This document shows, in pieces, positions 1 to 27,749 of a stretch of DNA of 35,146 nt. Origin of the DNA: a virus (Duplodnaviria > Heunggongvirae > Uroviricota > Caudoviricetes); IMG/VR virus record IMGVR_UViG_2909309443_000004. One strand, given 5' to 3'. Below the pieces are notes generated by a model. It had not been told where the DNA came from. It worked only from the letters and a program-made list of their open reading frames with translations, and ran no database searches. A program made the position numbers and the translations under genes. The stretch's first letter is position 1, and the number at the start of each line of letters is the position of its first letter.

Positions 1-1251
1 GTGCTTACCGATACAAAATTAAAAAACCTCAAGCCGCAGGACAAACTGTACAAGGTCTCCGATCGTGACGGGCTGTATGTAGCTGTGCTTACGTCAGGCA
101 CGGTCTCGTTTCGCTATGACTACCGTATCAACGGTCGCCGCGAAACACTGGTAATCGGGCAGTATGGGCGTGACGGTATCAGCCTGGCAGAAGCGCGAGA
201 AGAACTGATTGCTGCAAAGAAGCTGCTTAAAGCAGGCCAGTCACCGGCTGCGGCTAAACGTGACGGTATCAAAAAGATTCGTGGTGCCGAGACGTTTGCG
301 GTACATACCGACAGTTATATGAAACACGTCATCCTGGCTGACAGTACCCGCGCAATGAAACAGGCGGTGATCGACCGTGACATACTTCCGGTTCTTGGCA
401 ATAAAATGATGGCTGAAATTACCACATCGATGGTTCGTGATTTGTGTGACCGGATTGTCGAACGCGGTGGCCGGGCAACAGCAGTGCAGGCCAGGGAGAT
501 CATCAGTAGCGTATACCGTCACGCCAATGACCGTGGTCATGGTTTGTTTAATCCTGCGGCTGACATTAAACCTTCGTCTATCGCCATATTTAAACCACGA
601 GAGCGAACACTGACACCAGAAGAAATTGGCCTGTTCTTCCGCACGCTGGATGCCATTGGTGCTATGGGCACTATGAAAATGGCTTTAAAACTGGTGCTTA
701 TCACTATGGTTCGTAAGGGCGAATTCACCAATGCAACGTGGGATGAAATAGATTTTAAAAAATGGACATGGACAATTCCTCCAGACCGCATGAAGGGAAG
801 CCGGGCGCACGTTATTTACCTGCCTAAACAGGCACAGGATATATTGGTCGGGTTGCAGATGTGCGCTGGTGGAAGTGAATATCTGGTTCCTGGTCGTTAC
901 AATTTCCGGAAGCCATTATCTAATGCCGCGCTGAACTCTCTGATCGACAGAACGGTGAAAATAATAAATGAAGATGGTGAGCATATTCAGGACTTCACTG
1001 TACATGATATGCGCCGTACAGCCAGTACGTTGTTGCATGAGGCTGGTTATCCTTCAGACTGGATTGAAAAGGCTCTGGCACATGAGCAGAAAGGTGTGCG
1101 CGCCGTATATAACAAAGCGGAATACGCCAGACAGCGCGCCTACATGTTGCAGCAGTGGGCCGATATGATTGATTCATGGATTGACGGGGAGCATACGGAT
1201 CTGATTCCGTTCTCCCCGTCGAAGTTTGAGAAGTGGATGGCGGGGGAATAA
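1..1251 (+). CDS. int: Phage integrase, tyrosine recombinase (P4-like family); GTG start at window edge
   Basis: 416-aa ORF; N-terminal region (MLTDTKLKNLKPQDKLYKVSDRDGLYVAV...) typical of P4-type integrase arm-binding domain, C-terminal catalytic region with HDMRRTAST and terminal Tyr-containing segment (AVYNKAEYARQRAYM); sits at prophage end next to early genes. Confidence 0.9.
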   Translation: MLTDTKLKNLKPQDKLYKVSDRDGLYVAVLTSGTVSFRYDYRINGRRETLVIGQYGRDGISLAEAREELIAAKKLLKAGQSPAAAKRDGIKKIRGAETFAVHTDSYMKHVILADSTRAMKQAVIDRDILPVLGNKMMAEITTSMVRDLCDRIVERGGRATAVQAREIISSVYRHANDRGHGLFNPAADIKPSSIAIFKPRERTLTPEEIGLFFRTLDAIGAMGTMKMALKLVLITMVRKGEFTNATWDEIDFKKWTWTIPPDRMKGSRAHVIYLPKQAQDILVGLQMCAGGSEYLVPGRYNFRKPLSNAALNSLIDRTVKIINEDGEHIQDFTVHDMRRTASTLLHEAGYPSDWIEKALAHEQKGVRAVYNKAEYARQRAYMLQQWADMIDSWIDGEHTDLIPFSPSKFEKWMAGE

Positions 1252-1254
1252 CGT

Positions 1255-1449
1255 TTAATAGTTCTGCTGATTTTCTTCCATCTCGGCTTCTGCTGCCAGT
1301 GATTCAATTTTATCTGCGAATATTGCTGACAGTGTTGCAAATTCAGCATCAGTGACAGCGGGAATTGGAACAAACCTGATCCCGCTGTGTGCAAGCATGT
1401 TTGCAGTTTCAAGGCATTTCCTTAAATCTGCTGGTGATGCCCGGTTCAT
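1255..1449 (-). CDS. Hypothetical small protein (~64 aa), start at internal ATG immediately after methyltransferase stop
   Basis: ORF 1255..1569 in track; internal Met (MNRASPADLRK...) at 1449 abuts the stop of the upstream methyltransferase gene, suggesting translational coupling; no recognisable family. Confidence 0.35.
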   Translation of the reverse strand: MNRASPADLRKCLETANMLAHSGIRFVPIPAVTDAEFATLSAIFADKIESLAAEAEMEENQQNY

Positions 1450-2096
1450 GCTGCACGCTCCCGCCCCTGGTTGTCTGTTGGTGACAGCGGAGCATTGCTG
1501 AATGCATTTGTTAATCTGGCAATATCCAATGCGTATCCAGGGTGTAGTTGCACTGCCGGGTCTTCGCACTGATTACCCCAAACATCGAAGCCATGAGACG
1601 ACTGGCGGGCGAACAGTTCAATGCGAGAAACATCGCCTAACAATTGCACAAGTTTTTCACGAACGACATCTGGTTTTCTTGAATGCTCAAGCCGCGGTGC
1701 GGTAAATGACTGAACGATCCCTGCATTAATGCGCGGAGGTAGTTTTCCCTTTACTGCAAACAGGCAATCTTCACTATTGGCGCGAGTCATGTGTCCCATA
1801 CCCATAACCAGTTTATCTGGTTGTCGACTACCACATTTTATCCATGTGAAGCCCTTCATGGTCATCAGACGGAATCCCCAGGCTTCAACAACTTTTAGCG
1901 CTTCGAGTGGTTGTGTTGGCACCCACCACATGGCCAACAGACAGTTTTCATCGGCCAAATCCCACACAGGAAGGCGGCAGATATCCATCACACTCATAAC
2001 CGGATATTTAAAACCGGCACCGCGATTACCATCTGCGGCTTTGTCCCGGTATACCCAGGGTGGATCTGCATAGATTAGTGTGTATTTCTTAGTCAT
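1446..2096 (-). CDS. N6-adenine DNA methyltransferase, MT-A70 family (orphan, no cognate nuclease seen)
   Basis: 216-aa ORF with DPPW catalytic motif (LIYADPPWVYRD) near N-terminus, characteristic of MT-A70/Dam-like phage methyltransferases. Confidence 0.8.
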   Translation of the reverse strand: MTKKYTLIYADPPWVYRDKAADGNRGAGFKYPVMSVMDICRLPVWDLADENCLLAMWWVPTQPLEALKVVEAWGFRLMTMKGFTWIKCGSRQPDKLVMGMGHMTRANSEDCLFAVKGKLPPRINAGIVQSFTAPRLEHSRKPDVVREKLVQLLGDVSRIELFARQSSHGFDVWGNQCEDPAVQLHPGYALDIARLTNAFSNAPLSPTDNQGRERAA

Positions 2097-2388
2097 AAAC
2101 CACCCCGCAACATCCTATACCGCTATAGTCGCCACGGCGAAGGCCGTTACCTTTTGTGATACATTGGTCCCTGCGAACCGCGATCCTTGCACGCTCAACA
2201 TCACCAGAAGCAACATCCATACACTGAAGCCAAAGGTGAGCGGCAATGCGGAACTGTCCTTTTTTCTCTCTTTCAATTGCGCGTTTTTCGATCTCTATCG
2301 CCGCAGGAGTAACGGCGACAATCTTTGACGGACTGCGCATTGAAACCTTGTTCATGTGATATTTTTCAAGTCGGCTTAACTTTCTCAC
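2089..2388 (-). CDS. Hypothetical protein
   Basis: 99-aa ORF in leftward early operon, 8-nt overlap with downstream methyltransferase start; no recognised domain. Confidence 0.4.
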   Translation of the reverse strand: MRKLSRLEKYHMNKVSMRSPSKIVAVTPAAIEIEKRAIEREKKGQFRIAAHLWLQCMDVASGDVERARIAVRRDQCITKGNGLRRGDYSGIGCCGVVYD

Positions 2389-2497
2389 TTAATCCAACCC
2401 TCTCTGAAAATTAATGCCAGCAGATAAAGCCATGCTGAAACAGAGGCCAGGAATAAGTACCATCCTGACCATTTGCTCCAGTGCCTTAGCAGCACAC

Positions 2498-2746
2498 TCA
2501 TGCAGCGTTGCTCACAGGACGATATACACGTTGCTGAACAGGAGGCTTTTTACCCTGGAACTCTGCCGGGCTTGCTGCCTGACGTTCATCAAGCCAACGC
2601 TCAACTTCATCACGGTTCCATGCGCAGCGTTTGTCAGTGATATACCAGCGTTTAGGAAATTCCCCTGCGCGCTCCATGCGGTCGATAGTGCTCCATGACA
2701 GTGGCACCACCGCCAGGAGTTCCTTCTTACCTAATGCACCTTTCAT
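2498..2746 (-). CDS. AlpA-family DNA-binding protein (putative excisionase/transcriptional regulator)
   Basis: 82-aa ORF; segment LSWSTIDRMERAGEFPKRWYITDKRCAWNRDEVERWL matches AlpA/Xis-type HTH pattern (..STIYR.. G.FP.. W...EV..WL). Confidence 0.7.
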   Translation of the reverse strand: MKGALGKKELLAVVPLSWSTIDRMERAGEFPKRWYITDKRCAWNRDEVERWLDERQAASPAEFQGKKPPVQQRVYRPVSNAA

Positions 2747-2795
2747 AAATACCTCTCTTGGTTGCAGTGCGGCGCGCGTGGCGCCGCGGTGGTGG

Positions 2796-3737
2796 TTACA
2801 TAGATGTTTCGTTTAATTCTTCTCGACGAACGCTGTAAACGTCGGTGGCTTTTGCCAGCAGTTCGTCATCATCTGAAAGTTTTTGTGCAATGTATTTGTA
2901 AGCTTTATCCAGTTCGAAGACAGTGCTGTAATTCATCGCTGCGCTGGTAAAGGCCATCAGCATTTCTTCTGGATCACGGCTATCCGCTTTACGCGTTTGC
3001 TCATCAGGCTTTTTCACTTGTTTAGCGTTGATCAGACTGTTCATTCCCGCAGCAGTGGTCGTTTGCGGAGTAATGTCTCGCTCAACGCGCGGTGCCGTTT
3101 CCTGTAATTCGTCTGGTGTGTAGACGCCCATGATTACGTCAGGACAGTGCAGGCGAGACCAGCGTTTTGTCGCAAGGTATGCGAGTTGTTGTTTCGGATC
3201 ACTGGCCCAAAGTGTGGAGTTTCTTACCTGTGCTTGAGACAGCATTAACTCAAGCACTCGAGGTTGATCCTCGCCCTTCATGGTTGCCCATACGCGAACA
3301 CCGCAGCCTTCTTCGTCTTTTAGAGTCCAGCCTGGTGCGATATATGGATTGCCGTTTTTGGATGTTTTCTCAACAAACTTACCGATCACGCGTTCCCACG
3401 GCCCGAACCACTCGTAGTTGATGCGATCTTTTGTTGGCGACATCGTTGAGATAACTGCGTTTACTAATTGGGCTTCATAACCTAGCGTGCCGTTCACAAC
3501 ATGGGTTTTCTGAGCCACGGCAAACGGGTTCATTCCCCACTGCGCAGCCTGCATTGCCACGGCCATGCAATCAGCTGGTTTCCCGGCGAGGTGCGCCGGT
3601 ACCGTTACGCGGCTTTGCGCCATTACCTCGGCGAATTTCATCAGTTGGTTCAAGCCGTCTGGGCTGAAAATAGTTGCAGCAGTTCCAGCGATTGCTGTGT
3701 CTACTGGTGCGTTGATGTTTGCGATGTCGTTGCTCAT
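2796..3737 (-). CDS. recT: RecT-family single-strand annealing recombinase
   Basis: Track ORF 2796..3764; ATG at 3737 overlaps stop of upstream exonuclease gene (ATGA). Sequence features of RecT family (..LWASDPKQQLAYLATKRWSRLHCPDVIMGV..). Confidence 0.85.
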   Translation of the reverse strand: MSNDIANINAPVDTAIAGTAATIFSPDGLNQLMKFAEVMAQSRVTVPAHLAGKPADCMAVAMQAAQWGMNPFAVAQKTHVVNGTLGYEAQLVNAVISTMSPTKDRINYEWFGPWERVIGKFVEKTSKNGNPYIAPGWTLKDEEGCGVRVWATMKGEDQPRVLELMLSQAQVRNSTLWASDPKQQLAYLATKRWSRLHCPDVIMGVYTPDELQETAPRVERDITPQTTTAAGMNSLINAKQVKKPDEQTRKADSRDPEEMLMAFTSAAMNYSTVFELDKAYKYIAQKLSDDDELLAKATDVYSVRREELNETSM

Positions 3738-4555
3738 ATGTACATATCCTGTTTGCGTGCCCACTCAGGGCGTTTAATGATTTCCACACCGCCCCATTCA
3801 TCATTGATGCGGCATTCGTGATAGGTATTCAGATCCCGGCGGAACAGAGCGTGCCCGGCATCGACATCCTGCGCATCCAGCTCGAACACGCGTACCGGAT
3901 ACCGACCACAATCAATGCTTTCGCTCACGGCAAGAAAGAAAAAACCATGCGGCTGACCAGTAACCCTCATTGCGCCTTCGCGGTACATTGCGTCCTGCAC
4001 GTGGTAGCGGAATTCCTCGATGTGGCGTGCAAAACGGTCCATATCTGCAACCTTTTTCACGTCGACGATTACGTTGTGCTCGTTCAGCCATTTGTCTGGA
4101 CGAATTCGGCACAACTCACCCGTCTCTTCATCGTTCCAGTACATTGATGCTTCGCAGTAACCAGGTGCTTCCAACATCCAGCGTGCCGCCGGATGAGCCA
4201 TTGCGCTATCACGCATCAGCTCCAGTTTTCGCCACTGCTCGACATCAAGTACCGTAATACCCATATCCGCCACATCACGAAGAAATGCTTCTTCGTCAGC
4301 TTTACCTTGTTTTGTCCGACGATCTAATTTCGGTGAAACGATGAAGCGTTTGTCGAATTCTCCAGGTTCCAGAAGCAGACAGTGCAATGCGGTTCCCATA
4401 TCCAGTGCAGACTTTTTCTCTTCGTCTTCTGGTGCTGCCTGAACCCATTTAAGAAGCGCCGGATTCTTGGCAACCATGTCCAGTTGCGACTTACTCACGC
4501 CGTCACCGGCGTGGTAGTCTTCGTTGCTGATGTCGAAATAAATTCCCGGTTTCAT
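3734..4555 (-). CDS. Putative exonuclease, PD-(D/E)XK fold (RecE C-terminal domain / exonuclease VIII-like), partner of RecT
   Basis: 273-aa ORF; N-terminal GIYFDISNEDYHAG motif and acidic/Lys catalytic-like residues (..VIVDVKK..) typical of phage PDDEXK exonucleases found beside RecT; start overlaps previous gene stop. Confidence 0.7.
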   Translation of the reverse strand: MKPGIYFDISNEDYHAGDGVSKSQLDMVAKNPALLKWVQAAPEDEEKKSALDMGTALHCLLLEPGEFDKRFIVSPKLDRRTKQGKADEEAFLRDVADMGITVLDVEQWRKLELMRDSAMAHPAARWMLEAPGYCEASMYWNDEETGELCRIRPDKWLNEHNVIVDVKKVADMDRFARHIEEFRYHVQDAMYREGAMRVTGQPHGFFFLAVSESIDCGRYPVRVFELDAQDVDAGHALFRRDLNTYHECRINDEWGGVEIIKRPEWARKQDMYI

Positions 4556-4851
4556 GCCGCGTCCCTCTGCCCATCAAGCTGATCAGCCAGATCCCAGCGC
4601 GCGATAATTGCCATTGCCTCGCGCCGGTAGGCATCCATCAGTTCTTCGAACTCAGGGCTGTCTTTAGCTGCTTCCAGCACTTCCTGGCGAACTCCTTTGC
4701 CTGTTACAACGTCGAAAGTTGAGGCCAGTTGATGAAGCCGGATGGTCTCAATCAGTTCAACTTGTCGGTCATATAGCTGTTCTGACAGGCGGTAGTCCTT
4801 GTCGAATGCCAGCATGATTTTTTGAAGATTTTTCTGCTGATTAACGTTCAT
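4552..4851 (-). CDS. Hypothetical early protein (~99 aa)
   Basis: Track ORF 4552..4866; probable start MNVNQQ at 4851 preceded by GGGAGGG Shine-Dalgarno; no recognised domain. Confidence 0.45.
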   Translation of the reverse strand: MNVNQQKNLQKIMLAFDKDYRLSEQLYDRQVELIETIRLHQLASTFDVVTGKGVRQEVLEAAKDSPEFEELMDAYRREAMAIIARWDLADQLDGQRDAA

Positions 4852-4853
4852 TA

Positions 4854-5006
4854 TCAGCCCTCCCATATCTCGTTATCGTTGGCCACATCGCGAGCTTCTT
4901 TGCTGACGAAAGCCCACTTAATGCCTTCCTGTAAGGTGCGGAACTTCCAGCTCATGAATCCGCATGCAGTAACGCAGTACCAACCGTTGATGATTTTCCA
5001 CTGCAT
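4854..5006 (-). CDS. Small Trp/Cys-containing protein (50 aa), first gene of leftward early operon
   Basis: Manually translated minus-strand ORF MQWKIINGWYCVTACGFMSWKFRTLQEGIKWAFVSKEARDVANDNEIWEG; below 60-aa track cutoff; lies immediately downstream of the two OL operator palindromes. Confidence 0.3.
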   Translation of the reverse strand: MQWKIINGWYCVTACGFMSWKFRTLQEGIKWAFVSKEARDVANDNEIWEG

Positions 5007-5025
5007 AACTTGTTACCTCGGTCTG

Positions 5026-5102
5026 TTACCGTTGAGGTAATAATTATGCTTATTTGGTTTGGTGTCAATAGATATGAGTTAAAAAAATTACCCGTAAGGT
5101 AA
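5026..5102. promoter_or_regulatory. OL-like operator pair: TTACCGTTGAGGTAA (5026-5040) and TTACCCGTAAGGTAA (5088-5102)
   Basis: Two perfect 5-bp inverted half-sites separated by 5 bp, located between repressor gene terminator and start of leftward early operon. Confidence 0.55.
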
Positions 5103-5111
5103 TCTATCTGG

Positions 5112-5137
5112 CAATAAAAAAGCCGCCATGAGGCGGC
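5112..5137 (-). terminator. Rho-independent terminator downstream of repressor gene
   Basis: Minus-strand hairpin GCCGCC-tcat-GGCGGC followed by TTTTTTATT, 20-45 nt after repressor stop codon. Confidence 0.55.
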
Positions 5138-5159
5138 TTACTTGCTGAAAACTATAGTT

Positions 5160-5744
5160 TTATTGTTTGCTTTTTTCGTTCTGGTTGATGACAAATTCAA
5201 TGTAACTTTCGATCTTTGCCTTCTCTGTTTCAGGTAACAATGCGTAGCGCGAGCGGTCATAGTTGATAGTCGCGGGGTCGTGCGGGTGAATCAGTAATTC
5301 ATATCCGTGACGCCCAAATGCGGATGCAACATTCTCCAGGGTGGAAATGGAAACGCTGACCTCATTGTTTAACAGGCGGCTGATTGTTACCTGGGCGACG
5401 CCGGATGCGCGGTGAAGTTTTCCCTGCGTTGAAAGGTCGCGGCTTTCGCTCATCCAGCGTTCCAGGTTGTGAGCCGCCAGTTGACCAATGTCGCTTGGTC
5501 CGACAGGCTGAAAACCTTCCTGAGAAAGCGAGCGATCGATATCAAGCCAGTTACGGGGTTTATTGGCGGCAGCTTCAATTTTTCGCGCAACCTGGTCGCC
5601 GATAACCTTCTTGCCAAGAGCCCAGCGGTTTACCAGATTTGCCTGAGTTCCAAGTTTTTCAGCCATCCGCGTCTGAACACCATTGAATTCACGGTCGATC
5701 AAGTCGTTGAGATTTTGCCTGCGGACGTCCTGGATACTTTTCAT
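5160..5744 (-). CDS. Prophage repressor (CI-like), HTH protein without recognisable S24 peptidase domain
   Basis: 194-aa ORF divergent from Cro-like gene; two HTH-like segments (GVQTRMAEKLGTQANLVNRWALGKK and LHRASGVAQVTISRLLNNEVSVSISTLENVASAF); no Ala-Gly/Ser-Lys LexA-like cleavage module evident. Confidence 0.7.
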   Translation of the reverse strand: MKSIQDVRRQNLNDLIDREFNGVQTRMAEKLGTQANLVNRWALGKKVIGDQVARKIEAAANKPRNWLDIDRSLSQEGFQPVGPSDIGQLAAHNLERWMSESRDLSTQGKLHRASGVAQVTISRLLNNEVSVSISTLENVASAFGRHGYELLIHPHDPATINYDRSRYALLPETEKAKIESYIEFVINQNEKSKQ

Positions 5745-5799
5745 TTTCTGGAAAATCGCCTCATATCTGAATCAGAAGATGATTCAATTTAAAGCAATA

Positions 5800-5862
5800 T
5801 TACCCAACAGGTAAATGCACCTCATGGGTAACTATCCTTGATTTTTGTTACCTTATAGGTGA
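5800..5862. promoter_or_regulatory. OR-like operator region: TTACCCAACAGGTAA (5800-5814) and TTACCTTATAGGTGA (5848-5862) between divergent repressor and cro-like genes
   Basis: Same palindrome family as OL; intergenic 154-bp region with AT-rich promoter-like hexamers (TTGATT ... TGAATAT). Confidence 0.55.
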
Positions 5863-5898
5863 ATATTTATTATCTGAAATAAATATCAGGCAATAGCT

Positions 5899-6129
5899 AT
5901 GAGCGATAACGGACATTTCGATTTCAAAAAGCACTGGCTTGCACTTACTCCGGATGAGCGTGAAGCCTTCGCACAGGAAGCCGGAACGACGAGTCACTAT
6001 ATCCAGACTCACTTAACAGGTAAGCGCAAAATGCCAGGTAAGGTATTGATGGATGGGCTTTTTAAAGCCTGTAAATCAAGACAATGGCTGCGCTCAAAAG
6101 CAGAACTGGCATACTTCTTCTACTCATGA
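5899..6129 (+). CDS. Cro-like small HTH regulator
   Basis: 76-aa ORF divergent from repressor; HTH-like segment EREAFAQEAGTTSHYIQTHLTGKRKMP. Confidence 0.6.
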   Translation: MSDNGHFDFKKHWLALTPDEREAFAQEAGTTSHYIQTHLTGKRKMPGKVLMDGLFKACKSRQWLRSKAELAYFFYS

Positions 6130-6184
6130 TATCCAGCCACAACCCTCTGTAGACCGCCATCCGGCGGTCTTTTCATATCTATTC

Positions 6185-6199
6185 GTACCTCAAGGGTAA
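6185..6199. promoter_or_regulatory. Operator-like palindrome GTACCTCAAGGGTAA
   Basis: One-mismatch member of TTACC-N5-GGTAA family, 80 bp upstream of the 6280 ATG. Confidence 0.4.
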
Positions 6200-6279
6200 T
6201 AAAAAACCAAATATGGTTGATCTTTTTTTTGTGTCAGCACAAAATAACCGTAATCCCAATACTAATAACAGGGCTTACC

Positions 6280-6480
6280 ATGGAAATCATTACACGTATT
6301 GATGCCGCAAAGCGCGGACTTAAACGCTACTACACCGGAAAAACATGTAAGCACGGACATGACAGTGAACGCTGGGTTTACAACGGACACTGTGTTGAGT
6401 GCACCATGGAATCAAACCGTCGTATCAGGGCAGAGATTAAGCAGATCATGATTAATTCCTCCCCACAACATTCAAGCTGA
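6280..6480 (+). CDS. Small Cys/His-rich protein (possible zinc-binding regulator), cII position
   Basis: Track ORF 6217..6480 (TTG); likely ATG at 6280 (MEIITRIDAAKRGLKRYYTGKTCKHGHDSERWVYNGHCVECT...); C-x-H-x-H ... C-x2-C arrangement. Confidence 0.45.
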   Translation: MEIITRIDAAKRGLKRYYTGKTCKHGHDSERWVYNGHCVECTMESNRRIRAEIKQIMINSSPQHSS

Positions 6481-6495
6481 TAGCGGAGATTAATC

Positions 6496-7311
6496 ATGAG
6501 CAGACATGCAACAGATTGGGCCTGGGAGACAGATCCAGGTAGCTCGTCATTAAAGCTCATACTGCTCTCGATGGCTGACAGAGCCGATGAATATAACCTC
6601 TGCTACCCCAGCATAGAACGCCTCGTTAAAGACACTTGCCTGAATAAAAAAACCGTGCAGGCCGGACTTATATCGCTCATGAAAATGGGGCTTATTTCAG
6701 ATACCGGGGAGAGAAAGGGAGCGACAAAAAGAGTGCGGGTTTTCTCTCTTAATATAACCAAAAACGGGAACATTAAAGGCAACCGAGAGGGGGGCAATGA
6801 ACCCGAAAACGGTAATGTTACCGAAAACGGGAATATACCCAAAAACGGGATGTTGAATGATCCCAAAAACGGGATGTTGAATGATCCCAAAAACGGGATC
6901 CAGAACCAGTCATATAACCAGTCATTTAACCAAGAGAGGGAGAGCAGGACAAAAAACGGGGATTCTGTGCATCATGACCCCGGCGCAAACAACGCCGTGA
7001 TGAATAACTTTGTTCCTCCTGGTGGGCCAGGGCAATTAGGCAAATTTGTCATGCATGAACAATGGCAGCCATCAGATGACTTTCTTCGGAAAAGCTCATT
7101 GCAGGGGATCTACCTGGACAGTCTGCCAACGGCACAGGAACTTGCAGAGTTCAGAATTTACTGGATGGCTGAGGGTAAGGCATACCATCAGGCACAGTGG
7201 GAGCAGAAGCTGGCAAGGCGGCTGCAGATTAGCAGACAGAAGCAATCAACATTACCTGATAACAACGTTCCGCACTGGAACAGCCCTGAAGCATGGGAGG
7301 ATTTCTTGTGA
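6496..7311 (+). CDS. Replication initiator, lambda O-like N-terminal HTH domain with DnaT-like C-terminal region
   Basis: 271-aa ORF; N-terminus (..LKLILLSMADRADEYNLCYPSIERLVKDTCLNKKTVQAGLISLMKMGLI..) typical of phage replisome organiser HTH; contains iteron array in linker. Confidence 0.7.
   Translation: MSRHATDWAWETDPGSSSLKLILLSMADRADEYNLCYPSIERLVKDTCLNKKTVQAGLISLMKMGLISDTGERKGATKRVRVFSLNITKNGNIKGNREGGNEPENGNVTENGNIPKNGMLNDPKNGMLNDPKNGIQNQSYNQSFNQERESRTKNGDSVHHDPGANNAVMNNFVPPGGPGQLGKFVMHEQWQPSDDFLRKSSLQGIYLDSLPTAQELAEFRIYWMAEGKAYHQAQWEQKLARRLQISRQKQSTLPDNNVPHWNSPEAWEDFL
6757..6903. repeat. Iteron array (putative phage origin of replication) inside initiator gene: ~6 copies of CCAAAAACGGGA-like unit, including an exact 24-bp tandem duplication
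   Basis: Direct repeats accaaaaacgggaacatt / cccgaaaacggtaatgtt / accgaaaacgggaatata / cccaaaaacgggatgttgaatgat (x2) / cccaaaaacgggatcc; encode KNGN/ENGN peptide repeats. Confidence 0.65.
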
Positions 7312-8093
7312 ACAACGTTTTTACCGCGATACAAAACCGTGACGGAGAAGCCCTTTCTCGCATGTCAGGTTATGAGCATCAGTACACCAACAATGACAAC
7401 GTAGTGAACATGTCAGCAGAGAGGCTTGTTGATGCCCTTTTCAAACAGTTGAAACAACTGTTTCCGGCGGCAGTGGTAACCAACCTGAAGACGCCAGAGC
7501 AGGAAGTTGCTGCAAAACAGCAGTGGATTGCTGCGTTTGCCGAAGGGGGGATCCGAACCCGTGAACAGGTTTCTGCTGGTATGCGCCACGCCCGCGCCAG
7601 TGAATCTCCGTTCTGGCCGTCGCCAGGGCAATTTATCAAGTGGTGTAAAGACAGCAAGATGGTTCTTGGCGTCACCATTGACGATGTGATGGCGGAGTTT
7701 CACCGGTACAGCAAGGAAAAAAGTTTATATCCTGGTGGTCCCGAAAGATTCCCGTGGCGGCATCCGGTTATGTACTGGGTCGTATGTGATACACGCCGTG
7801 CAATGTATCAGCGCCAGCTTAGCGAGATTGAGGTTGAGAAACACGCGCGCAGGCTGCTCGATGATTGGGCGAAAAAGGTGGCTTCCGGACAGCAGATACC
7901 CGATCCGGTGATCAGCATACAGGCAAAGCCAGAGCCCATGAGTACGCCTCCGGACACAGGGAGAGACGTTTACCATCCACCAGGGCGAAGTTTCGGGTGC
8001 ATGCCTAACGCCGCCACCCTTGGGGGAATAACACCGGCGCAGTGGCTGATGGAGGAATACAGGCGGGGAAAGGCGGCAGGATTTATCAAGTAA
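7293..8093 (+). CDS. Replication protein P-like helicase loader (lambda P family)
   Basis: Segment FPAAVVTNLKTPEQEVAAKQQWIAAFAEGGIRTREQVSAGMRHARASESPFWPSPGQFIKWCKD closely parallels lambda P (..QWVLAFRENGITTMEQVNAGMRVARRQNRPFLPSPGQFVAWCRE..); alternative GTG start at 7308 overlapping O-like stop. Confidence 0.85.
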   Translation: MGGFLVNNVFTAIQNRDGEALSRMSGYEHQYTNNDNVVNMSAERLVDALFKQLKQLFPAAVVTNLKTPEQEVAAKQQWIAAFAEGGIRTREQVSAGMRHARASESPFWPSPGQFIKWCKDSKMVLGVTIDDVMAEFHRYSKEKSLYPGGPERFPWRHPVMYWVVCDTRRAMYQRQLSEIEVEKHARRLLDDWAKKVASGQQIPDPVISIQAKPEPMSTPPDTGRDVYHPPGRSFGCMPNAATLGGITPAQWLMEEYRRGKAAGFIK

Positions 8094-8130
8094 TACCAGC
8101 GCGATAGCGCATTTTTTTACGTCTATATGA

Positions 8131-8207
8131 TTACCTGGAAGGTAATAAAATGTTCTAATCTCTATTGATTTCATGTCTTATGTGGTTTTTAATTACCTAA
8201 GGGGTAA
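8131..8207. promoter_or_regulatory. Operator pair TTACCTGGAAGGTAA (8131-8145) and TTACCTAAGGGGTAA (8193-8207) upstream of 8211 ORF
   Basis: Two perfect TTACC-N5-GGTAA palindromes in 117-bp intergenic region after P-like gene. Confidence 0.5.
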
Positions 8208-8210
8208 ATC

Positions 8211-8523
8211 ATGAGAAAACAGATACAGGCTCTTGGTCGACTCAAAACAGGCCAGATGAACAAAACAGAATCTGCGTATTGCCAGCACCTTGAGCTGCGT
8301 AAACGTGCAGGGGAAATCGCCTGGTATCGATTCACCATCAGTGCCTGCAACACCAGAAGTTCAGGCAGCACCACAGGAGCAGGATGCCGCCGTTGTTGAT
8401 GCCCGCGACGAAGAAACTCGTCGCCGTCGCGCTGCTGCTGGTCGTAGTTCTACGCTGCTTACCGGTTCTCAGGGCGACACATCAACCGCTAATACCAGCG
8501 GTAAAACGCTGCTTGGTCAGTAA
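8211..8523 (+). pseudogene. Probable gene remnant / deletion scar: DUF1064-like N-terminal fragment (8211-~8330) joined out of frame to a Gly/Ser/Arg-rich C-terminal ORF (8290-8523)
   Basis: 8211 ORF begins MRKQIQALGRLKTGQMNKTESAYCQHLELRKRAGEIAWYRF (resembles N-terminus of phage DUF1064 proteins) then loses protein-like sequence; second frame ends ...RRRRAAAGRSSTLLTGSQGDTSTANTSGKTLLGQ; no intact product. Confidence 0.3.
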
Positions 8524-11208: not shown

Positions 11209-12085
11209 GAGAGGAGATAACAATGGCTGTTAAAGGCTTAACTGCGCTAACGCTGGCTGACTGGGGTAAGCGCGTCGATCCAAATGGGAAAGTCGATAAG
11301 ATTATCGAGCTTCTCAATCAAACTAACCCAATTCTTCAGGATATGCCTTTTGTTGAAGGAAACCTTCCTACCGGACACCGAACCACCATTCGTTCTGGTT
11401 TACCTTCTGCTACCTGGCGTTTGCTGAACTATGGCGTACAGCCAAGCAAATCAACCACAGTGCAGGTCACCGATTCCATTGGCATGCTGGAAACCTATGC
11501 TGAAGTCGATAAGTCTCTGGCTGATCTGAACGGTAATACTGCCGAATTCCGTCTGTCTGAAGACCGAGCATTTATTGAAGCGATGAATCAGGCGATGGCG
11601 CAGACACTGTTTTACGGTGATTCCAGCGTTAACCCTCAGCAGTTTATGGGACTGTCCTCCCGCTATTCCAGCCTGTCTGCGGGTAATGCTCAGAACATCA
11701 TTGATGCTGGTGGCACGGGTACAGATAACACTTCAATCTGGTTAGTGGTGTGGGGCGAAAACACCGTGCATGGCATCTTCCCGAAAGGACAGAAGGCTGG
11801 CATTCAGATGGAAGATAAAGGCCAGGTGACACTGGAAGATGCTAATGGCGGCAAGTACGAAGGTTATCGTACCCATTATAAGTGGGACAACGGGCTGACA
11901 TTACGTGACTGGCGCTATGTAGTTCGTATCGCAAACATCGATGTCAGCAATCTTTCAGAACCTTCCTCTGCCGCAAATATTGCGAAGTTGATGGTTAAAG
12001 GTAAGCGTAAACTGACCGCCGTATGTAGCCATCAGACGAGAATTGGTAACTTAGACGCCCATCTGATATAGACGGACATCTAAGT

Positions 12086-12511
12086 ATGGAATTACAGGAC
12101 TGGCGAAAAGAACCTCGTAAAAACTATTCGAATGAATTCAAACTTCGTATGGTGGAACTGGCATCACAACCTGGAGCTTGTGTTGCACAGATTGCACGTG
12201 AAAATGGCGTCAATGATAATGTTATTTTCAAATGGCTCAGGCTCTGGCAGAACGAAGGGCGTGTTTCGCGGCGTCTTCCGGTAACGACCTCTTCTGACAC
12301 TGGCGTTGAATTATTACCTGTAGAAATAACGCCGGATGAGCAGAAAGAACCTGTGGCGGCCATTGCGCCGTCTTTATCCACTTCCACTCAGACCAGAGTC
12401 AGTGCCAGTTCCTGCAAGGTGGAATTCCGTCACGGTAACATGACGCTGGAAAATCCATCGCCAGAGCTGCTCACAGTGTTGATCCGTGAACTGACCGGGA
12501 GGGGAAGATGA
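12086..12511 (+). CDS. IS66-family accessory protein TnpA (orfA)
   Basis: 141-aa ORF, HTH-like N-terminus (SNEFKLRMVELASQPGACVAQIARENGVNDNVIFKWLRLW); first ORF of IS66-type element. Confidence 0.8.
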   Translation: MELQDWRKEPRKNYSNEFKLRMVELASQPGACVAQIARENGVNDNVIFKWLRLWQNEGRVSRRLPVTTSSDTGVELLPVEITPDEQKEPVAAIAPSLSTSTQTRVSASSCKVEFRHGNMTLENPSPELLTVLIRELTGRGR

Positions 12512-12858
12512 TCTCACTCCCATCAGGTACCCGTATCTGGCTCGTTGCCGGCGTTACCGATATGCGTAAATCCTTCAACGGACTGGGAGAACAGGTACAA
12601 CATGTGCTGAATGATAATCCCTTCTCCGGTCACCTGTTTATCTTCCGTGGCCGACGGGGTGACACCGTCAAAATTCTTTGGGCTGATGCTGATGGTCTGT
12701 GCCTGTTCACCAAACGCCTGGAGGAAGGCCAGTTTATCTGGCCTGCGGTACGTGACGGCAAGGTATCCATTACCCGCTCGCAACTGGCAATGCTCCTCGA
12801 TAAGCTGGACTGGCGTCAGCCAAAAACATCCAGCCGTAACTCACTGACAATGTTGTAA
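12508..12858 (+). CDS. IS66-family accessory protein TnpB (orfB)
   Basis: 116-aa ORF MISLPSGTRIWLVAGVTDMRKSFNGL..., overlapping orfA stop (ATGA), typical IS66 Orf2. Confidence 0.8.
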   Translation: MISLPSGTRIWLVAGVTDMRKSFNGLGEQVQHVLNDNPFSGHLFIFRGRRGDTVKILWADADGLCLFTKRLEEGQFIWPAVRDGKVSITRSQLAMLLDKLDWRQPKTSSRNSLTML

Positions 12859-12888
12859 AAAACTCCTGACCGCATTATAAAAACGGTC

Positions 12889-14502
12889 ATGAGTCAGAAA
12901 TACCTCATTCGCATCGCAGAGCTGGAAAGGTTGCTCTCTGAGCAGGCTGAAGCCCTCCGTCAGAAAGACCAGCAACTGAGTCTGGTTGAAGAGACGGAAG
13001 CCTTCCTGCGCTCTGCACTGACACGTGCCGAAGAAAAGATCGAAGAAGATGAACGGGAAATAGAACATCTGCGGGCTCAGATAGAAAAACTGCGCCGGAT
13101 GCTGTTCGGTACCCGTTCTGAAAAACTGCGTCGTGAAGTTGAACTGGCTGAGGCTCTGCTGAAACAACGTGAACAGGACAGCGATCGTTACAGTGGGCGG
13201 GAAGACGATCCTCAGGTTCCCCGCCAGTTGCGACAGTCGCGCCATCGTCGTCCGTTACCGGCACACCTTCCCCGTGAAATACACCGCCTGGAGCCAGAAG
13301 AAAGCTGTTGCCCGGAGTGTGGCGGTGAGCTGGATTATCTGGGGGAAGTCAGCGCTGAACAGCTGGAACTGGTGAGCAGTGCCCTGAAAGTGATCCGCAC
13401 AGAACGGGTAAAAAAAGCCTGTACAAAATGTGACTGTATTGTTGAAGCACCGGCGCCGTCCCGCCCGATAGAGCGTGGTATCGCGGGCCCCGGATTACTT
13501 GCCCGCGTGTTAACGGGAAAATACTGCGAACATCTGCCACTGTATCGTCAGAGTGAAATCTTTGCCCGCCAGGGTGTCGAACTGAGCCGGGCCTTACTCT
13601 CCAACTGGGTTGACGCGTGCTGCCAGTTAATGACACCGGTGAATGATGCCCTGTACCGTTATGTAATGAACACCCGCAAGATTCACACTGATGACACACC
13701 GGTAAAGGTACTGGCACCGGGTCAGAAAAAGGCGAAAACAGGGCGTATCTGGACGTATGTCCGGGATGATCGCAATGTGGGTTCGTCATCTCCTCCAGCG
13801 GTCTGGTTCGCGTACTCGCCGAACCGGCAGGGGAAACACCCGGAGCAACACCTCCGCCCCTTCCGGGGTATCCTGCAGGCGGATGCGTTCACAGGTTACG
13901 ACAGGTTGTTCAGTGCAGAACGTGAAGGTGGTGCACTGACAGAAGTTGCGTGCTGGGCCCATGCCCGGCGAAAAATCCACGATGTATACATCAGCAGCAA
14001 AAGTGCGACGGCAGAAGAAGCACTGAAGCGAATCAGTGAACTGTACGCCATCGAGGATGAAATACGGGGATTACCGGAGTCAGAGCGTCTTGCCGTCAGG
14101 CAGCAGCGAAGCAAAGTGTTACTGACGTCGCTGCATGAATGGATGGTGGAGAAGAATGGTACGCTGTCGAAAAAATCCAGACTGGGCGAAGCGTTCAGCT
14201 ATGTACTGAATCAGTGGGATGCCCTCTGTTATTACAGTGATGACGGTCTGGCGGAGGCGGATAATAATGCTGCGGAAAGAGCGCTTCGTGCAGTCTGTCT
14301 CGGAAAGAAAAACTTTATGTTCTTTGGCAGCGATCACGGCGGCGAGCGTGGAGCACTGTTGTACGGGCTGATCGGCACCTGCCGTCTGAACGGTATCGAT
14401 CCGGAAGCGTATCTGCGCCATATCCTGAGCGTACTGCCGGAATGGCCTTCCAACCGAGTTGATGAACTCCTGCCATGGAACGTAGTACTCACCAATAAAT
14501 AA
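12889..14502 (+). CDS. IS66-family transposase (orfC)
   Basis: 537-aa ORF with N-terminal coiled coil/leucine zipper, CxxC zinc motifs (CCPECGGEL...CTKCDC) and DDE-type core. Confidence 0.85.
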   Translation: MSQKYLIRIAELERLLSEQAEALRQKDQQLSLVEETEAFLRSALTRAEEKIEEDEREIEHLRAQIEKLRRMLFGTRSEKLRREVELAEALLKQREQDSDRYSGREDDPQVPRQLRQSRHRRPLPAHLPREIHRLEPEESCCPECGGELDYLGEVSAEQLELVSSALKVIRTERVKKACTKCDCIVEAPAPSRPIERGIAGPGLLARVLTGKYCEHLPLYRQSEIFARQGVELSRALLSNWVDACCQLMTPVNDALYRYVMNTRKIHTDDTPVKVLAPGQKKAKTGRIWTYVRDDRNVGSSSPPAVWFAYSPNRQGKHPEQHLRPFRGILQADAFTGYDRLFSAEREGGALTEVACWAHARRKIHDVYISSKSATAEEALKRISELYAIEDEIRGLPESERLAVRQQRSKVLLTSLHEWMVEKNGTLSKKSRLGEAFSYVLNQWDALCYYSDDGLAEADNNAAERALRAVCLGKKNFMFFGSDHGGERGALLYGLIGTCRLNGIDPEAYLRHILSVLPEWPSNRVDELLPWNVVLTNK

Positions 14503-14799
14503 GCGTCAATACGGTGCTCCGTTGACGCTTACGTTAAAGCACTGCATCGCATTCCAAACCGTGGCATGGGTCGCCCGGTGTTCTACATGAACCGCACTGT
14601 AGGCCAGGCTCTTGATCTGCAATCTCTGGAGAAAACATCTCTGGCTATCAGCGTAAAAGAGACTGAAGGCGAGTGGTGGACTTCATTCCGTGGTGTACCA
14701 ATCCGTGAAACTGATGCGCTTCTGGAAACAGAAGCCCGCGTGGTGTAACGCCTGTTATTAACCTGTGGGTCGTAACAGACCCACTAATGGAGAAAGAAG

Positions 14800-16562: not shown

Positions 16563-18733
16563 TGGCTATCAGTTGGATCCAGCCCAGCTTTGCCGGTGGT
16601 GAGATTGGACCGTCGTTGTACGGACGTATCGACATGGCGAAGTACCAGGTGGCATTGCGCAAGTGCGATAACTTTATCGTGCGGCAGTATGGCGGCGTTG
16701 AGAATCGACCTGGTACGCGTTTTGTCGGTGCCGCCAAATACCCAAATCGGAAATGCCGCCTGATACCGTTCCAGTTCTCGACGGTTCAGACTTATGCTCT
16801 GGAGTTCGGACACCAGTACATGCGCGTTATCAAAGATGGTGCGTTGGTGCTGAACAGCAGCAATGTTATTTATGAAATTGCCACGCCATATACTGAAGCC
16901 GATCTGTTCCGAATTAAATTCACGCAAAGCGCAGACGTGCTTACGCTGGTTCATCCGGCATACCCGCCGAAAGAGTTGCGTCGCTATGCGCATGACAACT
17001 GGCAACTGGTTGATGTGGTAACGAAGAACGGACCATTTGAAGATATCAATATTGACGAGTCAGTGACGGTTTATGCCAGCGCCAGCACCGGGACAATTAC
17101 GTTAACGGCAAGCGCCTCTATTTTTGGCGCGGAGCAGGTAGGCAAATTGTTCTATCTGGAACAGCCTGCAGTGGATTCAGTGCCGGTATGGGAAACCAGT
17201 AAGAGTACGTCGATTGGCGATATTCGCCGTGCAGACAGTAACTACTATCGCGCCGTTACAGCAGGCAAAACAGGTACTTTGCGCCCTTCGCATACAGAAG
17301 GCACATCATGGGATGGCTGGGGCGGATCCGGTGATGATGATACTGGCATTGAGTGGGAATATCTGCACAGTGGTTTTGGCATTGCCCGTATCACTGCTGC
17401 AAATGGAACTACTGCAACTGCCGAGGTGATTTCCTATATCCCTTCGCAGGTAGTTGGCGAGGATAATGCCAGCTATAAATGGGCTAAATATGCCTGGAAC
17501 AGTGTTAATGGTTATCCTGGCACTGTTGTTTATTATCAACAACGTCTTTACTTCGCCGCATCGACTGCGTTCCCTCAGACTATCTGGGCTAGCCGTACCG
17601 GGGATTATAAGGATTTTGGCAAAAGCAATCCTACGCAGGATGACGACAGAATTATCTACACCTATGCCGGGCGTCAGGTTAATGAGATCCGCCACCTGAT
17701 TGATGTCGGTTCGCTGGTGGCACTGACTTCCGGAGGTGAGTACGTCATCACCGGCGACCAGAACAAAGTGTTAACCCCATCATCATTTGCATTCAGCTCT
17801 CAGGGATCAAATGGCTCGAGCAATGTCCCACCAATTGCCGTGGCGAATATTGCTCTGTTCGTCCAGGAGAAAGGCAGTGTTGTCCGTGATCTGGCCTACT
17901 CATTCGATGTTGACGGCTATCAGGGGAACGACCTGACCATCCTTGCCAATCATCTTTTTCAGAAGCACAGCATTGTTGACTGGTGCTTCTCTATTGTCCC
18001 TTACTCCAGCGCCTTCTGCATTCGTGATGACGGTAAATTACTGGTGATGACCTATTTGCGTGATCAGCAGGTTTTTGCATGGGCACCACAATCCAGTACC
18101 GGAAAATATGAAAGCACATGCAGTATCAGCGAAGGAAATGAAGATGCGGTGTATTTCGTTGTTAACCGAACCGTTAACGGGCAAACAGTGAGATACATCG
18201 AGCGACTGTCCAGCCGTTTATTTACCAGCGATGAAGATGCTTTCTTTGTTGATTCTGGCCTTAGCTATGATGGAAGAAATACGTCTGACAGAACGATGAC
18301 CATCACTGGTGGTTCTGGCGAATGGGATTACCGCGCGGAATATACAATCAGTATTTCTGGTGGTGCGTACTTCACCAGTAGTGATGTCGGTGCGCAACTA
18401 CAGTTCCCTTATACCGGCGCTGATTTATCTACCGGTAACGCGCTGGATATATTTGGTGACACTGCTCAGTTTGGCGCTCTTGATTCGCTGACGACGGTGA
18501 ATAACGCGCAACGCGAGGCTTACGGTTATCAGGTTCAGGCTGCCAACTATAAAGCAGAAGCCAGTTCAGCCCGTAAACAGGGGAATGTGGGAGCAGCAAC
18601 AACATTGCTCACTGCGCCTCTGAAGGCATACGGTGCGTACCAGATGTTTGGTGGGACGTGGAGTCCGTTTACTCAAAGCACCCCTGCGCCAATCGGGGCA
18701 GCAGCAGGAACCAGATTACCCGGAGGATTATAA
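16562..18733 (+). CDS. Tail tubular protein B / nozzle (T7 gp12-like)
   Basis: 723-aa ORF, start overlaps previous stop; size, position and beta-rich sequence consistent with podovirus gp12. Confidence 0.6.
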   Translation: MAISWIQPSFAGGEIGPSLYGRIDMAKYQVALRKCDNFIVRQYGGVENRPGTRFVGAAKYPNRKCRLIPFQFSTVQTYALEFGHQYMRVIKDGALVLNSSNVIYEIATPYTEADLFRIKFTQSADVLTLVHPAYPPKELRRYAHDNWQLVDVVTKNGPFEDINIDESVTVYASASTGTITLTASASIFGAEQVGKLFYLEQPAVDSVPVWETSKSTSIGDIRRADSNYYRAVTAGKTGTLRPSHTEGTSWDGWGGSGDDDTGIEWEYLHSGFGIARITAANGTTATAEVISYIPSQVVGEDNASYKWAKYAWNSVNGYPGTVVYYQQRLYFAASTAFPQTIWASRTGDYKDFGKSNPTQDDDRIIYTYAGRQVNEIRHLIDVGSLVALTSGGEYVITGDQNKVLTPSSFAFSSQGSNGSSNVPPIAVANIALFVQEKGSVVRDLAYSFDVDGYQGNDLTILANHLFQKHSIVDWCFSIVPYSSAFCIRDDGKLLVMTYLRDQQVFAWAPQSSTGKYESTCSISEGNEDAVYFVVNRTVNGQTVRYIERLSSRLFTSDEDAFFVDSGLSYDGRNTSDRTMTITGGSGEWDYRAEYTISISGGAYFTSSDVGAQLQFPYTGADLSTGNALDIFGDTAQFGALDSLTTVNNAQREAYGYQVQAANYKAEASSARKQGNVGAATTLLTAPLKAYGAYQMFGGTWSPFTQSTPAPIGAAAGTRLPGGL

Positions 18734-27029: not shown

Positions 27030-27749
27030 TCAGAAGAACCCTGCCTTGTCGTTGATGTACTCCGCGTGGGTCTGGATATCACGCAGGCATTTGCTCACAC
27101 CGACGATGTAGCAGAACATGGTGGTCAGTTCCGCCGCCGCGCCCGATACGTCATGCCCGTCTTCCTGTAACTGGTTCAGCAAATTCATCAGCAGTGAGTT
27201 CTCCGTCAGGCCGAGAACACCAGACGGTGAATGAATCAGGCTACGGTAGCCGGGCTTCAGTGGGGCGCTGTAGGTTTTGTTCTCTATCTTCATTGCCTGC
27301 ATCACTGCTGATGCTGTGGCGTTGGCTACCTGGTCGGCAACCATCTTTATGCGTTCTTCTTGCGGGAGCGAGTTTTTAATGTAACTTCCGGTGCGGCGGA
27401 TCTGAGGAAGAACCTCACCTGTAACCCATTTACGAAAGCGGTATGGGATAGTGCCTGGTGTCACCGCATCGCGGCAGCGGAGGATCAGTGTGTAGAGGCC
27501 TGACTCGTTGATAATATTGGTTTCGCCTTGACGGCCTAAGTTAAATTTAGCCCTTTCATCATCATCAAGAGATTTTATTGACATAGTGGGGTTTGTCAGT
27601 TGAAGAGCTTTAATAACGTCTTTGGCAACAAACCAAGGATTAATCGCAAATCCAACTCTCCTCAGAGTTATAACGCTCAAACGCTTTACACATACTTTGT
27701 GTTGGTGCTGGAGGGCGTTCAAGGGCAGCCATGACTTGCTCCCAAACAT
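27030..27749 (-). CDS. Bro-N-like antirepressor-type protein with C-terminal domain paralogous to 28868..29125 product
   Basis: Track ORF 27030..27758; Bro-N-like segment GFAINPWFVAKDVIKAL...SGLYTLILRCRDAVTPGTIPYRFRKWVTGEVLPQIRRTG; C-terminal ~90 aa share clear similarity with ORF 28868..29143. Confidence 0.6.
   Translation of the reverse strand: MFGSKSWLPLNALQHQHKVCVKRLSVITLRRVGFAINPWFVAKDVIKALQLTNPTMSIKSLDDDERAKFNLGRQGETNIINESGLYTLILRCRDAVTPGTIPYRFRKWVTGEVLPQIRRTGSYIKNSLPQEERIKMVADQVANATASAVMQAMKIENKTYSAPLKPGYRSLIHSPSGVLGLTENSLLMNLLNQLQEDGHDVSGAAAELTTMFCYIVGVSKCLRDIQTHAEYINDKAGFF

Follow-up and report, generated by a model that had tools for sequence, protein, structure and literature searches.

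An orphan MT-A70 adenine methyltransferase and its DUF1382 neighbour in a phiV10-like Escherichia coli prophage

The methylase gene and the gene behind it

The subject of this analysis is a window of 35,146 nucleotides (nt), given as IMG/VR virus record IMGVR_UViG_2909309443_000004, and more particularly two overlapping genes near its left end, both on the minus strand. The first (1446..2096) encodes an MT-A70 family (beta-class) N6-adenine methyltransferase of 216 amino acids (aa), hereafter the methylase, and the second (1255..1449) encodes a DUF1382 protein of 64 aa, homologous to lambda Orf63. Together they are the methylase-DUF1382 pair known from phiV10/epsilon15-like (Uetakevirus) prophages, here in one that is integrated beside guaA. 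This is an ordinary find: public annotation already records the two genes and their families, shows them side by side and includes near-identical copies in a characterised phage, and a close homologue of the methylase has been studied experimentally.

The identity of the methylase is drawn from Pfam, PHROG, PADLOC, its likeness to phage proteins and its ratio of nonsynonymous to synonymous substitution rates (dN/dS). The protein matches Pfam MT-A70 (PF05063) over profile positions 1-172/172 with 79.5 bits against a cut-off of 23.9 (E=3.8e-22), PHROG 359, "DNA methyltransferase", with E=5e-120, and PADLOC MTase_II with E=5e-77. The last is the sole PADLOC match, and PADLOC has no model for DUF1382 or for PerC, the family of the gene directly upstream; no NCBIfam model was found for the methylase or the DUF1382 protein. 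The N-terminus of the methylase reads MTKKYTLIYADPPW, with DPPW as residues 11-14 (nt 2066..2055), which confirms the MT-A70 DPPW adenine methyltransferase recognised in the initial annotation. The motifs follow the beta order, with motif IV (DPPW) at the N-terminus and the S-adenosylmethionine (SAM)-binding segment C-terminal to it.

An alignment of 27 homologues has 53 invariant columns. Within DPPW, the first P and the W are invariant, and the D and second P are at least 90% conserved; in the ELFAR segment (residues 160-164), E160 and F162 are invariant, and L161 and R164 are at least 90% conserved. The DPPW codons, GAT CCA CCC TGG, happen to contain a GATC site (window 2063-2066), which would make the gene a target of its own product if the enzyme is GATC-specific; this is a trivial observation. 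An alignment with the Stx-phage and epsilon15 homologues delimits a C-terminal tail of residues 188-216 (29 codons plus the stop, 1535..1446, minus strand), which is restricted to the phiV10/SPN1S lineage and is lacking in epsilon15. The structural model described below suggests that this tail is probably disordered.

The methylase is identical to RefSeq WP_000163467.1, is the orthologue of phiV10 gp33, and is 76-83% identical to its homologues in Shiga toxin (Stx) phages and epsilon15. Homologues occur in 2242 database clusters across Enterobacterales, and tblastn locates the gene in 517 phage-genome records.

According to the initial annotation, the 64-aa product has no recognisable family. 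This is wrong: Pfam DUF1382 (PF07131) is matched over profile positions 1-60/60 with 105.7 bits against a cut-off of 27 (E=1.3e-30), PHROG 292 with E=7e-30, and the PDB entry 8DSB over residues 2-62 with E=6e-13. The family alignment has a conserved GIRFVPIP core in which G23, I24, F26, V27, P28 and P30 are invariant, and the protein is identical to RefSeq WP_001077941.1. Comparison with a graded series of more and less divergent homologues gives dN/dS values of 0.05-0.29 (methylase) and 0.06-0.20 (DUF1382 protein), so both open reading frames (ORFs) are under purifying selection. Given the Pfam match of the smaller one and the low dN/dS of both, they are genuine genes rather than chance ORFs.

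The methylase is a small, single-domain, beta-class enzyme without a nuclease partner. Its neighbours are the integrase, DUF1382, PerC, AlpA and RecT/RecE-like genes, and no cognate endonuclease adjoins it as it would in a type II restriction-modification system. No restriction nuclease is annotated in the prophage by RefSeq or detected by PADLOC, and no nuclease family was found among the tested hypothetical ORFs of the closely related M9682-C1 prophage, which carry, TacA excepted, the same protein accessions as the annotation matching the window. The methylase is thus an orphan, as had been proposed.

A phiV10-like prophage and its early-left operon

Over its full length, the window follows the chromosome of E. 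coli strain E8 (NZ_CM180514.1) colinearly, at 99.991% identity. There, the prophage lies between guaA and yfgI, and the two genes are annotated as "MT-A70 family methyltransferase" (WP_000163467.1) and "DUF1382 family protein" (WP_001077941.1). The M9682-C1 prophage was rejected as the source: it matches the 842-bp region of the two genes at 100%, yet a comparison by way of phiV10 shows that it is not colinear with the window. The same 842-bp region is present in 562 of 5426 complete E. coli genomes (about 10%), 371 of which hold both genes.

Among phages, the first 5 kb of the window are 98% identical to phiV10, YDC107_2, EC.W1-9, TL-2011b, ZX5 and the O157 typing phages 9 and 10, and identity to phiV10 DNA is 97.9% over window 1-8333. 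In phiV10, the same pair stands in the same order as gp33 (PhiV10p33, "DNA methyltransferase") and gp32 (PhiV10p32, "DUF1382 family protein"), likewise between a PerC-like gene and a convergent P4-type integrase. The proteins differ from those of the window by point differences only (97% identity for the methylase and 98% for DUF1382). The pair also occurs in TL-2011b, vB_EcoP_ZX5, EC.W1-9 and the O157 typing phages 9 and 10.

While phiV10 is a viable phage, the prophage in the window is defective relative to it. Its major capsid gene is interrupted by the IS66-family element ISEc23 (window 12001-14532, with a 7-bp duplication), which carries tnpA (12086-12511), tnpB (12508-12858) and a transposase gene (12889-14502). 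About 7 kb have been lost at ~8333 in comparison with phiV10, a loss that took both terminase genes, the greater part of the DUF1064 gene and the accessory genes of the late region, and about 1.3 kb of a tail-protein gene are missing at ~18.4 kb (~18412-18424). Neither the early-left operon nor the repressor gene is affected.

The operon is read leftwards on the minus strand. It begins beyond the repressor gene (5160..5744, minus), whose 3' end is followed by a terminator-like hairpin (5139..5120, minus). Just beyond this hairpin, a consensus scan found a candidate early-left promoter, TTGACA-17-AATTAT (5068..5040, minus), with 10 of 12 matches; this is a pattern match only, and it is the only promoter-like site 5' of the operon on that strand. 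Two small ORFs at the operon head (4854..5006 and 4552..4851, minus, after the RefSeq annotation of the near-identical E8 locus) are followed by genes for a RecE-like PD-(D/E)XK exonuclease (3734..4555, minus; Pfam DUF3799), RecT (2796..3737/3764, minus; Pfam RecT), an AlpA-type excisionase/regulator (2498..2746, minus; Pfam Phage_AlpA), and a small PerC-family regulator directly upstream of the methylase (2089..2388, minus, with the RefSeq start at 2340; Pfam PF06069, E=6e-7; PHROG 868, E=6e-62). After the methylase and DUF1382 comes the convergent gene of a P4-type tyrosine integrase (1..1251, plus; Pfam Arm-DNA-bind_3, Phage_int_M and Phage_integrase).

The methylase and DUF1382 genes are joined in the translational-coupling arrangement that the initial annotation had described. 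The ATG of DUF1382 (1449-1447) and the TGA of the methylase (1448-1446) share the letters ATGA, a 4-nt overlap, and the minus-strand letters across the junction are CAGGGGCGGGAGCGTGCAGCATGAACCGG. A Shine-Dalgarno-like stretch, GGGAG, lies about 8 nt 5' of the DUF1382 ATG. However, overlaps of 4-8 nt were also found at four of the five other operon junctions that were checked. The TAA of PerC (2091-2089) and the ATG of the methylase (2096-2094) stand in an 8-nt overlap, and 4-nt overlaps occur between the 4552..4851 ORF and the RecE-like gene, between the RecE-like gene and RecT, and between AlpA and a small membrane ORF that is annotated in phiV10; the junction of 4854..5006 with 4552..4851 has a 2-nt gap. 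Because overlapping junctions are usual in this operon, the ATGA overlap alone is no sign of partnership.

No promoter-like (sigma-70) or terminator-like site was found by the consensus scan on the minus strand from 5040 to 1255, although weak or stationary-phase promoters may escape such a scan. A promoter and terminator of its own would be expected if the methylase gene were a moron, as it had been called, and that label is not supported here. The placement of the methylase beside the integrase in a leftward prophage early operon fares better, and is made plausible by the gene order and the promoter scan. This organisation fits a single repressor-controlled early-left transcript, which would run through the small ORFs, RecE-like, RecT, AlpA/Xis, PerC, methylase and DUF1382 genes, and then antisense of int. 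The methylase gene is then probably silent or repressed in the lysogen.

At the left end of the operon, the TAA of DUF1382 (1257-1255) lies 3 nt from the convergent TAA of the integrase, and the interval (window 1249-1257) has no terminator-like structure. With so close a convergence, an early-left transcript that read through would run antisense to int. This could amount to a retroregulation-like control of the integrase.

Several minor features of the operon were also encountered. The PerC protein has a weak, sub-threshold match to the NCBIfam model ANR_neg_reg. Rare in-frame PerC-methylase fusions are found in databases as two clusters, P0003 (297 aa, 3 member sequences) and P0004 (263 aa, 2 member sequences); such a fusion would follow from the loss of 1 nt in GTTTATGAC, and these entries may be real variants or assembly errors. 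The RecE-like and RecT genes (2796-4555, minus) are separate overlapping ORFs, whereas the phiV10 record gives one fused RecE-RecT ORF of 1761 nt, which may be either a frameshift difference or an artefact of the phiV10 annotation. Elsewhere, in the late region of the prophage, a TacA-type (DUF1778) antitoxin gene (27640-27924, minus) is followed by an overlapping BRO-N domain gene (27030-27680, minus) in place of the usual GNAT toxin, which is an unusual pairing.

DUF1382 as a neighbour of the methylase

A characterised member of the DUF1382 family is Orf63 of lambda. Entry 8DSB is its nuclear magnetic resonance structure, an obligate dimer (PMC10869804). Deletion of orf63 in lambda and Phi24B leads to more lysogenisation and to lower early gene expression on induction, and YqhC has been reported as a yeast two-hybrid partner of Orf63 (PMC5575149). 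The window protein belongs to the same Pfam family over its full length, is about 50% identical to lambda Orf63 and shares the GIRFVPIP core. In both cases, the gene lies in the early-left operon, with the recombination genes on one side and int on the other. On the other hand, no methylase adjoins orf63 in lambda, where the neighbour is DUF1317/orf61 (exo-xis region), and both the dimer and the pro-lytic phenotype have been described for lambda and Phi24B only (PMC10869804, PMC5575149). By analogy, we infer that the 64-aa gene may encode a small dimeric developmental protein of the Orf63 type.

How often DUF1382 accompanies the methylase was counted in 80 IMG/VR loci retrieved with the methylase and 80 loci retrieved with DUF1382. 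The first set has DUF1382 adjacent to the methylase in 22 of 80 loci. In the phiV10 and Stx types it follows the methylase, and in four others (L024, L025, L046 and L050) it stands directly upstream, with its stop overlapping the methylase ATG by 4 nt. Five near-identical phiV10-type loci lack DUF1382, and the longer ones (L007, L011, L015, L022) have other DNA in its place; E. coli genomes with the methylase but without DUF1382 have a serine/threonine phosphatase annotated in that slot. Most methylase loci at 45-88% identity lack DUF1382. In the second set, the methylase is upstream of DUF1382 in 66 loci, downstream in seven, and absent from seven. In one of these loci, L163, the DUF1382 is 68% identical while its methylase neighbour reaches only 49% identity. 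In lambda, 434 and Stx1 phages, DUF1382 stands beside DUF1317 with no methylase, and some Stx phages have two copies of DUF1382.

The second Stx-phage copy is the canonical exo-xis orf63 beside DUF1317, and it is this exo-xis copy that the published orf63 deletions concern. The copy adjacent to the methylase in TL-2011c (L002, 3501-4299) overlaps the last 41 nt of the methylase gene, so that deleting it would clip the methylase tail.

DUF1382 as an obligate partner of the methylase was therefore rejected: the methylase alone, DUF1382 alone and both gene orders all occur, and the allele pairs do not co-diverge. The slot between methylase and integrase varies even among near-identical phiV10-type prophages (L007, L011, L015, L021, L022), with DUF1382 in most, the serine/threonine phosphatase in others, and a transacetylase repressor in epsilon15, and it marks a cassette-exchange hotspot. 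These arrangements are most simply read as the shuffling of independent cassettes, namely PerC, DUF1382, methylase and phosphatase, in one early-left accessory slot. DUF1382 would then be a separate cassette that shares the operon, and not a subunit of the enzyme. One observation weighs against this. DUF1382 abuts the methylase in at least three arrangements, namely behind the methylase with an overlap of either 4 nt or 41 nt, and in front of it with an overlap of 4 nt, and this is a mild argument for a functional link.

Target and role of the methylase

The initial annotation gave the target motif as unknown, but this is an overstatement since several homologues have been tested. M.EcoGV, described as "highly similar" to the Stx-type enzymes, methylates GATC in vivo from a plasmid, as reported in two papers that cite Fang et al. 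2012, and REBASE files such Stx-type enzymes as GATC (PMC10810198, PMC6602927). According to Gong et al., M.EcoGV is weakly expressed in its native strain (PMC10810198). The MT-A70 enzyme PhiBZS1_p32 of Serratia phage BZS1 renders plasmid DNA resistant to MboI and sensitive to DpnI in a dam- host, and M.EfaBMDam of Tn1549 is likewise GATC-specific (PMC7556043). With the HK639 methylase, PhiBZS1_p32 shares 75% identity and the methylase of the window 44%. PhiBZS1_p32, the HK639 methylase and M.EfaBMDam share the Pfam family and the size of the window enzyme and are orphan genes borne by phages or a transposon, and in the BZS1 and HK639 phages the gene lies near the integrase, as it does here. 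Their differences are an identity of only ~41-44% and other neighbouring genes. A tested relative with another preference is the Stx enzyme with PNB-2, discussed below, which preferred 16S ribosomal RNA (rRNA).

Since PhiBZS1_p32, M.EfaBMDam and M.EcoGV, the last a close relative of the 83%-identical Stx-phage homologue, all methylate GATC, we infer DNA and GATC as the target. The methylase is fairly probably a Dam-mimicking GATC DNA adenine methyltransferase that is expressed on induction or infection. It would be translated from the same repressor-controlled early-left transcript as RecE/RecT and the excisionase, and would keep the fast-replicating phage DNA, and transiently the host DNA, fully methylated at GATC. 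Two pay-offs can be conjectured. The first would be protection from nucleases that cut unmethylated GATC. The second would be a blunting of Dam-directed (MutH) mismatch repair, or of SeqA control, while a RecET-type recombinase is active. Overproduction of Dam is known to cause a loss of strand discrimination in mismatch repair, and the second pay-off is suggested by this effect.

Several points weigh against a Dam-like role. A literature search for the activity of the window orthologue or phiV10 gp33 found nothing relevant. For the purified Stx homologue, no significant methylation of GATC or other DNA is reported in vitro, and strong activity is described only on 16S rRNA and 30S subunits with PNB-2 (PMC10810198). 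The GATC result for M.EcoGV is second-hand, taken from PMC10810198 and PMC6602927. Moreover, a dam+ host has no need of a second GATC enzyme, so that any benefit is conjectural. The GATC content of the prophage (123 observed against 162 expected) is neutral either way; it was considered as a hint to the target and set aside, as the ratio is the same in the host flank.

The Stx2-phage homologue offers the closest comparison, and also the basis for a different account of the methylase. According to Gong, Chakraborty and Koudelka 2023, M.EcoPA8orf6770P raises spontaneous induction and virulence in a DPPW-dependent manner (PMC10810198). On its own, the enzyme is described there as having almost no in vitro activity on DNA, dam- DNA included. 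PNB-2, which is encoded by the overlapping gene upstream, co-purifies with it at 1:1, and the complex consumes SAM preferentially with 16S rRNA and 30S subunits (PMC10810198). The same source proposes that the ~27 C-terminal residues of the STEC (Shiga toxin-producing E. coli) type matter for holoenzyme formation, and describes non-STEC variants with a different C-terminus that lack PNB-2 (PMC10810198). In TL-2011c, the gene order is gp12, methylase gp13 and DUF1382 gp14. Immediately 5' of TL-2011c gp12 lies the terminator that Gong et al. locate between their gp7 and gp6, and this identifies gp12 as PNB-2.

The Stx2-phage methylase is 82-83% identical to the window methylase over residues 1-187, has the same DPPW site, lies near int/xis in the early-left region, and is likewise followed by a DUF1382 gene. 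Beyond residue 187, the similarity of the TL-2011c homologue stops and the last ~29 residues are unrelated. Its DUF1382 is 49% identical to that of the window and overlaps the methylase by 41 nt rather than 4 nt. Upstream of the methylase, the Stx phages have PNB-2, whereas the window has the unrelated PerC-like gene. PerC was considered as an equivalent of PNB-2 and rejected, as there is no sequence similarity between them, and tblastn of PNB-2 and PNB-1 gave no match below E=0.79 in the whole window. Thus, two defining features of the rRNA-methylase holoenzyme, PNB-2 upstream and the STEC-type tail, are not present in the window.

It is tempting to speculate that the window methylase is nevertheless a partner-dependent RNA methylase, nearly inactive by itself, which acts on 16S rRNA or another RNA once bound to a small nucleic-acid-binding partner and raises spontaneous induction, with, for example, the PerC-like protein or DUF1382 as the partner instead of PNB-2. 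The catalytic core is 83% identical to that of the Stx enzyme, for which the 1:1 association with an upstream overlapping gene product, the preference for 16S rRNA/30S, and the increase in induction and virulence are all reported (PMC10810198). Both window neighbours are small and translationally coupled, the eukaryotic MT-A70 enzymes function as heteromers (PMC9852454), and the rare fusions P0003 and P0004 place PerC and methylase in one frame. Nonetheless, we consider this account unlikely. PNB-2 and PNB-1 homologues were not found in the window (tblastn E>0.7), PerC does not resemble PNB-2, and the C-terminal tail tied to PNB-2 binding is replaced. PNB-2-less variants exist in non-STEC strains, and the Stx assay recorded SAM consumption only and pointed to no particular modified rRNA base (PMC10810198). 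Furthermore, PerC, DUF1382 and the methylase are each found without the others in related loci, and the fusions comprise 3 and 2 sequences, could arise from a 1-nt deletion, and may be errors.

Structural comparisons bear on the same question. By sequence, the closest solved structures are of the Tetrahymena DNA 6mA subunit MTA1 (7F4R, E=2.5e-13, with 7F4L and 7YI8 close behind), and METTL3 ranks behind it (E=3e-6), an order that counts for DNA as the substrate; 7YI8 is the MTA1 complex (PMC9852454). The DPPW motif, and probably the catalytic fold, are common to the ciliate MTA1c, which makes 6mA in DNA, to METTL3-METTL14, which makes m6A in mRNA, and to the window methylase. In contrast to the latter, the eukaryotic MT-A70 enzymes are obligate heteromers with extra domains, and their identity to it is ~20-25%. 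An AlphaFold (AF2) model built from 27 close homologues is of low confidence (mean pLDDT 61, pTM 0.62, with the tail below 50). With this low-confidence model, Foldseek finds METTL3 and MTA1 about equally (probability 1.0, TM ~0.6). The predicted fold does not appear to favour either an RNA or a DNA substrate, and the tie between MTA1 and METTL3 therefore weakens one argument for rRNA as the substrate.

Alternatively, the methylase might be a DNA adenine methylase with a non-GATC or relaxed motif that forms a broad anti-restriction shield, in line with the anti-restriction role proposed in the initial annotation. Small phage methyltransferases of relaxed specificity do exist, such as the OS31 prophage enzyme (PMC7556043) and M.EcoGI/GII (PMC6602927), but these are members of other families. 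In principle, recognition could be altered by the 29-aa tail of this lineage and by the 17% of the core that differs from the Stx enzyme. However, all tested bacterial MT-A70 members that this analysis came upon are GATC-specific, at ~80% and ~40% identity to the methylase, and the tail, modelled with low confidence, is probably disordered. A non-GATC motif is thus a doubtful proposition.

Given the loss of the terminase region, the ISEc23 insertion in the major capsid gene and the tail-gene deletion, the methylase might also be a functionally irrelevant remnant, the silent cargo of a decaying defective prophage; this is quite unlikely, since both ORFs are intact, identical to the WP_000163467.1 and WP_001077941.1 of other strains, 97% identical to the proteins of viable phiV10 and under purifying selection, and the whole early-left operon and repressor are intact.

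Least probable of all, and very unlikely, is that the small neighbours are interchangeable specificity or activity subunits, with DUF1382 or PerC in a PNB-2-like role that redirects the methylase to RNA or to particular DNA sites; the idea is kept open by the overlapping abutment in three arrangements, even beside the 49%-identical methylase allele, and if true it would join the two published pro-lytic phenotypes, those of Orf63 and the Stx-phage methylase, in one pathway.

If the methylase is a GATC enzyme that mimics Dam, this has consequences for how such genes are studied. A comparison of the methylomes of lysogen and cured strain, as put forward in the initial annotation, is uninformative for this methylase, because the host Dam masks GATC, the gene is probably repressed in the lysogen, and RNA methylation is invisible to it. 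Such a comparison is unable to test any Dam-mimicking, repressor-controlled phage methylase.

The value of the locus as a discovery is small, since the pair is a standard annotated part of phiV10/epsilon15-like and Stx prophages. Its interest lies in a dispute over the clade, whose members are seen either as Dam-like GATC DNA methylases (Fang 2012; REBASE) or as 16S rRNA methylases that depend on a partner and govern the rate of prophage induction (Gong 2023). In this respect, the gene of the phiV10 type is a natural control, with the same catalytic core, a different tail, and no PNB-2. The activity of the phiV10-type enzyme would tell whether methylation of DNA at GATC is the ground state of the clade.

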